Of a stretch of DNA of 64,000 nt, positions 33,001 through 36,000 are shown one piece after another (positions within the stretch are counted from its first letter, which is position 1; every line of letters starts with the position of its first letter). The position numbers are program-made. The DNA lies in NCBI RefSeq assembly GCF_030013205.1, contig NZ_CP122648.1; one strand, given 5' to 3'. This DNA is from Escherichia coli (GTDB lineage Bacteria; Pseudomonadota; Gammaproteobacteria; Enterobacterales; Enterobacteriaceae).

Positions 33001-36000
33001 AGTAAAAAACTACCTCCTGAGGAGGTAGTTTAGAGACAATAATTATAGTAGATGTAAAACACCCACTTTCTAATTATCCAATCGGTAGTTGCGGCCATTG
33101 AATATCTGGGGCTAAACCAATATCAACTTTCTCTAACATATGAATATAATTAATCCAATCTATTAGTTTTAATCGGTCCCCATCGGAGATGATTCCTAAT
33201 TGCAACTCTGTCTGCCAAAGATTAATAGCTTCATTTGCTGACACTAGGCGAGACTTTCTTTCCTGTTCCGCATTTCTTAATAAACTTTTTCTCATCATTT
33301 CATGGTTAAACCGCCATTCGATTCCATCCCATTCGTCATAAGGAGATAATGGAACTAGTGGTGTAACATTGCTCGGATAATCACCAATTACTGTAATAAT
33401 TTCTGGCTCCCCTGTTTCGATGTTATATACTGTATCACCACGATGATCTGGGATATATTCCCACGACCTCAGATCCTCTGTCCGACAAATAATATATCCC
33501 TTTCTATTTTCGCCTGGAGGATCAATACACGAGTTAGCAGGTATCCCCACACCTGCGGAAAGATATTCAGAGGAGGATGATAAATATTCTCTGGAATCAT
33601 AATCATAGTTATAAACAGTAATCATCCCTGCTGATATAGCAATTAAGTTGCTGTCTAATTCTGCTTTCATTATGCCGCCCTTACAATATAATTGAACGCT
33701 ACGTTGCGGGGTCTACTCATAGCTATATATCCGATACGGTCAGTGTTTGTTACTCCGTTCGCAGCGATCGCCCTGACTGTGTAAAGATTGGACGGCAAGT
33801 CTGTTGGTTTTTTATCATATCCCCACACAGAATAGTCCACCAGGTTGTTAATTGTTAAAGGGGTGATTGTTGACTCGCCATCATCCCCAACGACTAGCGA
33901 CCCACGCTGCTCACTTAACAGAGTTCGCCCCTCATCCACACCTCGTCCGTCATCCCAGCCACGAATAAACTCGCCGCGTAAATCAGGTAATTTTAGAGAA
34001 GGGTAAACTTTTGCCAGTTGTGGGTATTCTTCGGCATAGAATGCTGCACCATTACATTTCAACCATCCTTCAGGTGGTGTTTCTATTGGCCACGGAACAG
34101 GCACTCCCACCGGGAGTGCGGACCCAGTTCCCAAACCGAGGTTATTTAAAAACGCAGCTACATCAGCAATATCTGAACCGTTCTTACTGATTTCCATTTT
34201 ACCTGACATGGTTTTAGTAATCGTCGTGGCAAAGTTCGGATCATTCCCCAGCGCCGCCGCCAATTCGTTCAGTGTATCCAGTGCCGCAGGTGCAGAACCC
34301 ACTATTGCTGCAATCGCCGATTTCACAAAAGCCGTGGTGGCAATCTGTGTATTGTTGACCGACTGTGCCGCAGTAGGTGCGGTTGGCGTTCCGGTGAGTG
34401 CCGGACTCGACAGCGGCGCTTTCAGTGCCAGCGCATTGTTAATGGTGGTACTGAATTTCGGATCATTGTTAATGGCTGCGGCTATTTCTTTCAGCGTGTC
34501 CAGCGTGGCTGGCGCACCATTAATAAGAGCCGTCAGAGCCGCCTGAACAAACGCGGTGGTCGCAATCTGCGTGGTGTTATTCCCTGCGGCTGGCGTTGGC
34601 GCTTTGGGTGTCCCGGTAAGCGTCGGACTTTCTTTGGGTGCATACTGTGAATGCGGGTCCGGTGCGGCAAGATGTTTTGCCATCTGATCATCCACGTACA
34701 CCTTCAACTCCAGTGCTTTGTCATCCACATACTTGCGGGTTGCCAGCACGACGGCAGGGTCGATTTTCAGTGTGATATTGTCCGTGCTGCTGGTAATCAG
34801 CACCATGCGCACGGTCTGGGTGCGCCCGCTGCCTTCAGCCAGTTGTGGCTTATAGCTTTCCGGGCAGTTGCCCACGGCAATCAATGCCCCGGACTCATCA
34901 AACAAGCCCACTTCACGTATCCACCAACCGCCCTCGTTTTCAGGGATCACCTGTTCGGCAATAATCTGGCTGCTGTTCTGCGGGTCGATATAGAGCATAT
35001 TCAGCGCAGCCCGGCGTTTCTCATTTACCAGTGCAGTCTGCTTTGAGTCTGGCGTTGGCAATACTCCGCCGCCATCGCCGACCGCCATATGGGTAATTTT
35101 TAGCGGCACACCGAGCGCGGCGGCGCTGGCAAGTTTCGCCGCGCCAATATCCGTCAGCAGGGTATAAAATTTTGTGCTCATGGATTCACTCTCATTGTGT
35201 CAATAACATGGACCGCCCCGCCTTCATGCGCGGTGCCGCCAGAAATAATTGTTTCGTTGATATACGGATAGATCGTGATTTCTTCGCCAAGATAGCTGGC
35301 GGCCCCCACCCAATGCGGACCGCTGGTCTGCAGATTGATGGACATGCCGATCATGTGACGGCTACATGGTTTGGCATCGCTTATCAGCCGCTCAAGTTCC
35401 AGATAGGTATCTTCAGTGATGCCCTGGTCCTGCACGCCGATATCCAGGCGAAACGTGCCCGGTGTTTCTCCGGTCTGCCACCACCCGCCGCACGGCACTG
35501 GTGGTTCCTTTATGCTGATGAATATAAAAAGCATCCTTCACTACCTGGCGTTTGACGCTTTCTGTCCAGCCCTCGTCCCAGCGATCCACAGAGAACGCCC
35601 AGGCGAGATAAGGCAGGAAGCTGACCGGACAGGTAGCCGGATTCCACAAGTCACGCAGCGGCACCTGCAGATCAGAAATCCCGCTACAGGTTTGCGCCAG
35701 TCGGCGCTCCAGTGAAGTTGAACCCGGTGGCAGCAGACTATTCATCCGTTCCTCCGTTGGTTACGCTCCACTGCGTACATGATGCCGCCTGTGTTTTGTT
35801 CAGGACCACATCCGCCAGAGGAGAAGCCAGCTCCACACGCTGCACACCCTCAACATGCAGGGCGGCAAAGATGGCGCTACGGCGAATATCCCGACCAAGA
35901 CGCGTCTGACTGGCGATGTACTTCTGCAGGCTGGCTTTTGCCGCTGCCATTACCGGCTCTGCTTCCGGTCCCGGATAGAGAAAAATGGTGGCTTCCACGC

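Follow-up and report, generated by a model that had tools for sequence, protein, structure and literature searches.

Among the four minimal components of the P2 baseplate is gpI (PMC4604203), the product of gene I, a baseplate wedge protein of 176 residues built around the Tail_P2_I domain (PF09684). In the P2 genome, this gene occurs in the order V-W-J-I-H-G, with start-stop overlaps between J and I and between I and H. A homologous protein, Tri2 (PA0619; PDB codes 6u5b and 6u5k), is found in the R-type pyocins, whose gene cluster specifies a complete functional tail device. A cryptic P2-like prophage is also known from E. coli B and BL21, where it is inserted between the rcdA and ybjL genes. 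With respect to the loss of short segments from genes, deletions between short direct repeats, attributed to slipped mispairing over a short homology, have been described for the lacI gene of E. coli.

The window, i.e., the whole stretch of 64,000 nucleotides of Escherichia coli DNA analysed here (contig NZ_CP122648.1), contains a gpI gene and a prophage remnant that can be compared with each of these systems. The intact allele of this gpI, as it occurs in relatives, shares the domain of P2 gpI and is 56% identical to it, and the gene of the window sits on the minus strand in the same V, W, J, I, H, G order, with the same J/I and I/H overlaps, as in P2 and in phage Cartapus. Unlike P2 gpI, the gene of the window is cut by a 38-bp deletion (codons 88-100) and gives no full-length product, and the intact allele of this Elveevirus-like subgroup (e.g., phage Cartapus) measures 201 residues, with a longer C-terminus. 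The intact allele is similarly homologous to Tri2 (E=1e-45 over residues 3-174), and the segment deleted from gpI aligns to VEPIGALSEVTEW in Tri2, inside the conserved and structurally resolved part of the protein. However, in contrast to the pyocin cluster, the element of the window is a fragment devoid of sheath and tube. It occupies the same rcdA-ybjL site and belongs to the same phage family as the B/BL21 prophage, matching BL21-type genomes with 82% coverage and 96.8% identity, but it is a much smaller remnant (ca. 11.6 kb) with its own lineage-specific deletions and a different cargo. As in the lacI deletions, the endpoints of the gpI deletion fall exactly on a short direct repeat, of which one copy has been lost together with the intervening DNA; in the present case the repeat measures only 7 bp, the intervening hairpin is insignificant, and the mechanism is one that we infer.

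The gpI gene and the surrounding prophage remnant

The P2-like remnant covers 11.6 kb (ca. 30396-42012) between rcdA and ybjL. The integrase and CI genes adjoin rcdA and ogr adjoins ybjL, which places the integrase and the repressor at the known attachment site, flanked by host genes. The following features were recognized along the remnant:

30396..30614 (-), ogr/Delta late activator, intact, at the remnant end adjoining ybjL
30705..31730 (-), gpD homologue without its 5' end; the right-arm deletion took FI, FII, E, E', T and U
31946..33001 (+), acyltransferase family 3 cargo gene, intact, at the P2 Z/fun position after G (Pfam Acyl_transf_3, E=6.3e-17)
33074..33670 (-), tail fibre assembly gene at the gpG position, intact ORF
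33670..35181 (-), tail fibre gene at the gpH position, intact ORF, whose ATG overlaps the original gpI stop (ATGA)
35178..35745 (-), gpI pseudogene (P2 gene I/Tail_P2_I), 568 nt versus 606 nt in the intact gene
35178..35534 (-), frame-B ORF of 118 aa, 17 non-native residues followed by native residues 101-201
35413..35745 (-), frame-A ORF of 110 aa, native residues 1-89 followed by 21 out-of-frame residues and a stop
35478..35484 (-), deletion junction, the single remaining GTGGTGG copy, from the alignment with the intact allele
35738..36646 (-), gpJ homologue (baseplate assembly), intact ORF, overlapping the gpI start
36633..36992 (-), gpW/gp25 homologue, intact ORF
36989..37567 (-), gpV homologue (baseplate hub/spike), intact ORF
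37653..38588 (+), FRG-domain cargo gene, intact, at the P2 orf30 position between S and V (Pfam FRG, E=2.1e-19)
39045..39615 (-), junction left by the large deletion of the left arm, a fusion of a CII-family gene (5' 396 nt) and gpR (3' 180 nt)
39995..42012 (+), CI repressor (39995-40564), small ORF and integrase (40960-42012), at the remnant end adjoining rcdA

The first-pass annotation had reported two overlapping ORFs in different frames which together span a gpI-like baseplate protein at 35178-35745, and three lines of evidence agree with that description. Both ORFs, which overlap by 122 nt, match the Pfam Tail_P2_I profile above its 20.6-bit cut-off, frame A over profile positions 1-86 (E=1.9e-35) and frame B over positions 92-138 (E=1.4e-9), and the gpI of an intact relative covers positions 1-138 in a single stretch (E=1.5e-54). 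The alignment to P2 gpI, which had been proposed as a means of locating the break, places it between ...RRVV, up to which frame A follows gpI, and WW..., where frame B picks it up. Finally, the RefSeq annotation of E. coli ETEC4079, to which the window is 100% identical over 64 kb (NZ_CP122643.1:3318693-3382692), lists a "phage tail protein I, frameshifted" at the matching coordinates. The frameshift of gpI is therefore already known from public annotation. The intact allele is a single frame of 606 nt encoding 201 aa, and the uninterrupted frame of about 176-201 aa that characterizes a Tail_P2_I member is absent from the window. Judged from its sequence, the gpI of the window is a pseudogene of the Tail_P2_I family and not a functional member of it.

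An intact relative of the whole prophage, 33 kb long and also adjoining ybjL, occurs in strain MS10860 and was used as the mapping reference. Two large stretches of this reference are missing from the window. On the left arm, positions 1185-17545 (ca. 16.4 kb, from CII to R) have been lost, comprising the rest of the early region (Dam methylase, replication gene A), a block of accessory genes, the portal, terminase, scaffold and capsid genes, and in addition head completion, X, the holin, the lysozyme, the spanins and most of R. On the right arm, about 5.8 kb (ca. 24340-30136) have disappeared with the sheath gene FI, the tube gene FII, E, E', the tape measure gene T, U and the 5' end of D. 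What is left comprises int, CI, an ORF at the cox position, the fused remains of CII and R, the genes S, V, W, J, H and G with the disrupted I between J and H, the truncated D and ogr, together with two cargo genes on the opposite strand. The annotated CII-family and gpR fragments at 39045-39615 (-) overlap by 5 nt. The genes lost are essential for particle production, as in other defective prophages, and since head, tail and lysis genes are missing, the remnant is unable to make heads or tails or to lyse the cell. The view already expressed at first pass, that this prophage cannot make particles, is thus borne out by the disappearance of the head, lysis and replication genes on the one side, and of sheath, tube, E/E', T and U on the other.

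The 38-bp deletion and its distribution

Alignment of the window gpI with the intact MS10860 gene and with that of phage Cartapus revealed a single 38-column gap. Outside it, all 701 positions of the gpI region in the window agree with MS10860, so that the gap is the sole difference between the two sequences, and the same 701-nt query corresponds to 739 nt in relatives when compared by BLAST with phage genomes and complete E. coli genomes. A single-base indel, as implied at first pass, was accordingly discarded as the cause of the frameshift. Intact relatives possess two copies of GTGGTGG, 38 bp apart from start to start, as read straight off the alignment with the intact allele, and the deletion removed one 7-bp copy and the 31 bp which separate the copies. 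The intact sequence across the deletion site is ...CGGCGG[GTGGTGGAACCGTTCGGATTCCTGATCCGCATTATTGA]GTGGTGGCAGACC.... Within the intact 606-nt gene, the deleted segment corresponds to nt 262-299 (codons 88-100), and the Tail_P2_I domain has lost residues 90-100 (EPFGFLIRIIE) of its conserved core. As 38 is not divisible by 3, the deletion shifts the reading frame: 89 native residues are followed by 21 nonsense residues and a stop, and the 101 C-terminal codons are left in another frame. It is almost certain that gpI was inactivated by this one 38-bp deletion between GTGGTGG copies, in a particle-incompetent P2-like (Peduoviridae) remnant.

With respect to the mechanism, the deletion would have arisen by slipped-strand mispairing during replication, or by a microhomology-mediated event, between the two GTGGTGG copies. 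By our estimate, a gene of 600 nt would by chance contain about two such pairs of 7-bp repeats lying within 50 nt, and the repeat therefore accounts for the endpoints of the deletion but gives no proof of the mechanism. For the hairpin CGGAT...ATCCG located between the repeats, the stability does not exceed that of shuffled sequence (z=-0.48), and slippage assisted by this stem is for that reason not claimed. The resulting allele would yield no functional gpI and its consequences are presumably neutral. The premature stop codon is separated by about 235 nt from the downstream tail fibre gene H, whose start formerly overlapped the gpI stop, so that the translational coupling between gpI and H, as deduced from this arrangement, has probably been lost as well. 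From the established biology of P2, the late operon is probably silent anyway, taking into account that CI is intact and that the replication genes are absent.

A sequence of 41 nt (17 nt, the repeat and another 17 nt), unable to seed on the undeleted gene, served as a probe for the junction. It matched 17 of 5,426 complete E. coli genomes, each at one chromosomal position and with 100% identity, and all 17 carriers originate from pigs (Sus scrofa) or wild boar. Belgium contributed an ETEC series, France the O139:H1 strains W13-16 and P15-25, and Japan the strains EC556, EC571 and EC581; K_EC180 completes the set. In 1,014 E. coli genomes, 80% or more of the 701-nt region was matched and, among the matches listed, all but the 17 junction carriers have the undeleted length. 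The label "phage tail protein I, frameshifted" appears in the RefSeq annotation of every carrier genome examined.

These data bear directly on the caution, also raised at first pass, that the frameshift could be a sequencing error and that the genome really harbours an intact, single-frame gpI. Such a suspicion draws on prior expectation, frameshifts in single assemblies being sometimes artefacts, but the same 38-bp junction recurs in 17 complete genomes independently assembled in separate projects from Belgium, France and Japan and for K_EC180, and the French carriers, which are ST1 strains of oedema disease, were closed with PacBio RSII and Illumina reads (PMC8798679). A clean loss of 38 bp flanked by direct repeats is, moreover, atypical of platform error. 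The probability of an artefact is accordingly negligible and the caution can be dropped: the frameshift is biological and no fault of assembly, and the 38-bp deletion is a genuine one that has become fixed in a lineage of E. coli associated with pigs, to which the O139:H1 ST1 oedema-disease strains belong.

Two other explanations would preserve a role for the altered gene. According to the first of them, a programmed +1 ribosomal frameshift or some other recoding event joins both frames into a functional, shortened gpI. The 122-nt overlap of the frames would allow it, and two consecutive CGG codons stand just before the junction; pausing at rare codons can promote +1 slippage. However, a programmed frameshift is expected to be conserved, whereas about 1,000 related E. 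coli genomes and all phage relatives have one frame and 38 more bases at this place, which makes the two-frame layout a derived one. The joined product would still miss 11-13 residues of the conserved Tail_P2_I core and, with the other tail parts absent, would find nothing to assemble into, so that recoding deserves hardly any credence. The alternative that the remnant has been domesticated as a tail device, i.e., a tailocin or a co-opted baseplate/fibre module in which the change of gpI is adaptive, can point to the persistence of the contiguous and intact S, V, W, J, H and G ORFs along with ogr, CI and int. Yet no contractile device is possible without sheath, tube, E/E', tape measure, gpU and lysis cassette and with a truncated gpD, and the loss of different parts in sister strains argues against conservation; the strains are, in addition, so alike that ORFs would stay intact even in the absence of selection. 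Domestication is very improbable on these grounds, and an R-type tailocin in particular, which comprises a complete contractile module (sheath, tube, tape measure, baseplate and fibre) and a lysis cassette but no head genes, was rejected on gene content, the window having no sheath, tube, E/E', T, U or lysis genes, a truncated gpD and a broken gpI. The gpI of the window is a dead relic, a textbook pseudogene in a decaying prophage. Taken alone, this lesion is a case of ordinary prophage decay and has little importance; its 41-nt junction, specific to a pathogenic lineage of pigs and wild boar (17 of 5,426 genomes), could serve as a marker.

Erosion of the prophage in sister strains

The 17 carriers of the junction fall into several structural types, with at least two patterns of deletion in the left arm and at least four in the right arm, which are nested in each other. 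In the left arm, the EC556 type has kept its early region up to a truncated A gene (deletion 4420-17434), and all other carriers show the larger deletion 1185-17545, which encloses the former; in EC556, 3.2 kb of the early region and about 110 nt of R have survived which the other carriers lack. In the right arm, FI-FII-E-E' and part of T are preserved in the W13-16/ETEC1701 type, whose deletions extend over 27536-28883 and 29353-30120, and ETEC4075, EC556 and the window each possess a different, larger deletion enclosing both of these. The types differ by about 3-4 point differences per 7-14 kb. Deletions have clearly outpaced substitutions in this remnant and, together with the differing large deletions of the sister strains, the 38-bp lesion offers a clean, small example of prophage erosion driven by deletion.

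The 38-bp deletion in gpI is the only lesion with identical endpoints in all 17 genomes, and it must therefore date back to their common ancestor or earlier. This raises the idea of a founding lesion, by which the 38-bp deletion first struck a complete, inducible prophage and trapped it as a non-infectious element, the large deletions having followed later. That no large deletion is common to all 17 genomes by its endpoints, with four patterns in the right arm, is consistent with such a sequence of events, as is the unique constancy of the 38-bp lesion. However, the left-arm deletion of EC556 (A joined to R) lies inside that of the other carriers (CII joined to R in the window), and a shared ancestral deletion of the head genes, later extended, is equally parsimonious, so that the nested deletions fit both orders of events equally well. 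Among the 5,426 genomes, none combines the 38-bp deletion with intact head genes. The founding-lesion scenario is for these reasons rather doubtful, and the broader proposal that the 38-bp deletion was the first, immobilising hit in the ancestor of a pig-adapted O139:H1/ST1 lineage, with the 17 genomes as a time series of its erosion, is to be regarded as equally tentative. If it were true, at least 5-6 independent nested deletions could be set against a handful of point substitutions, and the rates of deletion and substitution would become measurable relative to each other.

Erosion is not restricted to the P2-like element in this clone. The Stx2e prophage of the O139:H1 ST1 strains W13-16 and P15-25 is reported to have also lost late-gene regions and to be probably particle-incompetent (PMC8798679), which indicates that the P2-like remnant is not a unique case.

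The same comparison determines how far the frameshift can be read as a sign of selection. The first-pass annotation had regarded it as consistent with relaxed selection on the structural genes of a prophage unable to make particles. The premise holds, gpI being frameshifted in a particle-incompetent prophage, but the loss of particles may have come either before or after the hit on gpI. The pseudogene has, in addition, accumulated zero substitutions with respect to the intact allele and, with about 3-4 SNPs per 7-14 kb across the lineage, substitutions carry no information on relaxed selection. A contrast had also been drawn between broken structural genes and intact cargo genes. Both cargo genes are indeed intact, but so are the structural ORFs S, V, W, J, H and G, and at so low a divergence intact ORFs say little about selection in either group.

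Cargo genes and other observations in the window

Some additional observations concern the two cargo genes. The FRG-domain gene, for which an accessory or defence role is possible, occupies a slot reduced to a gap of just 68 nt in MS10860, and the corresponding orf30 of P2 is non-essential. EC556 has a variant of the gene, and ETEC1701 a shortened one of 744 nt. The acyltransferase, located at the Z/fun slot of P2, which is one of lysogenic conversion, is represented by one protein accession across every carrier genome examined and could be a candidate surface-polysaccharide acetylase.

Outside the remnant, the chromosomal nitroreductase gene nfsA, at 26389-27110 (-), is frameshifted, with 722 nt instead of 723 nt and a frame lost after about residue 42. 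It is flagged by RefSeq in ETEC4079 and is intact in ETEC4075, EC556 and W13-16; the loss of nfsA is a first step to nitrofuran resistance. Between ybjQ and ybjP, a gene for a pentapeptide-repeat protein (ca. 12210-13448, -) is annotated by RefSeq in ETEC4079 as a truncated pseudogene with a missing C-terminus. Finally, a gene for a RelE/ParE-family toxin and an overlapping helix-turn-helix gene, located between rimO and dgcI (ca. 53591-54296, +), resemble a type II toxin-antitoxin pair inserted among core chromosomal genes.
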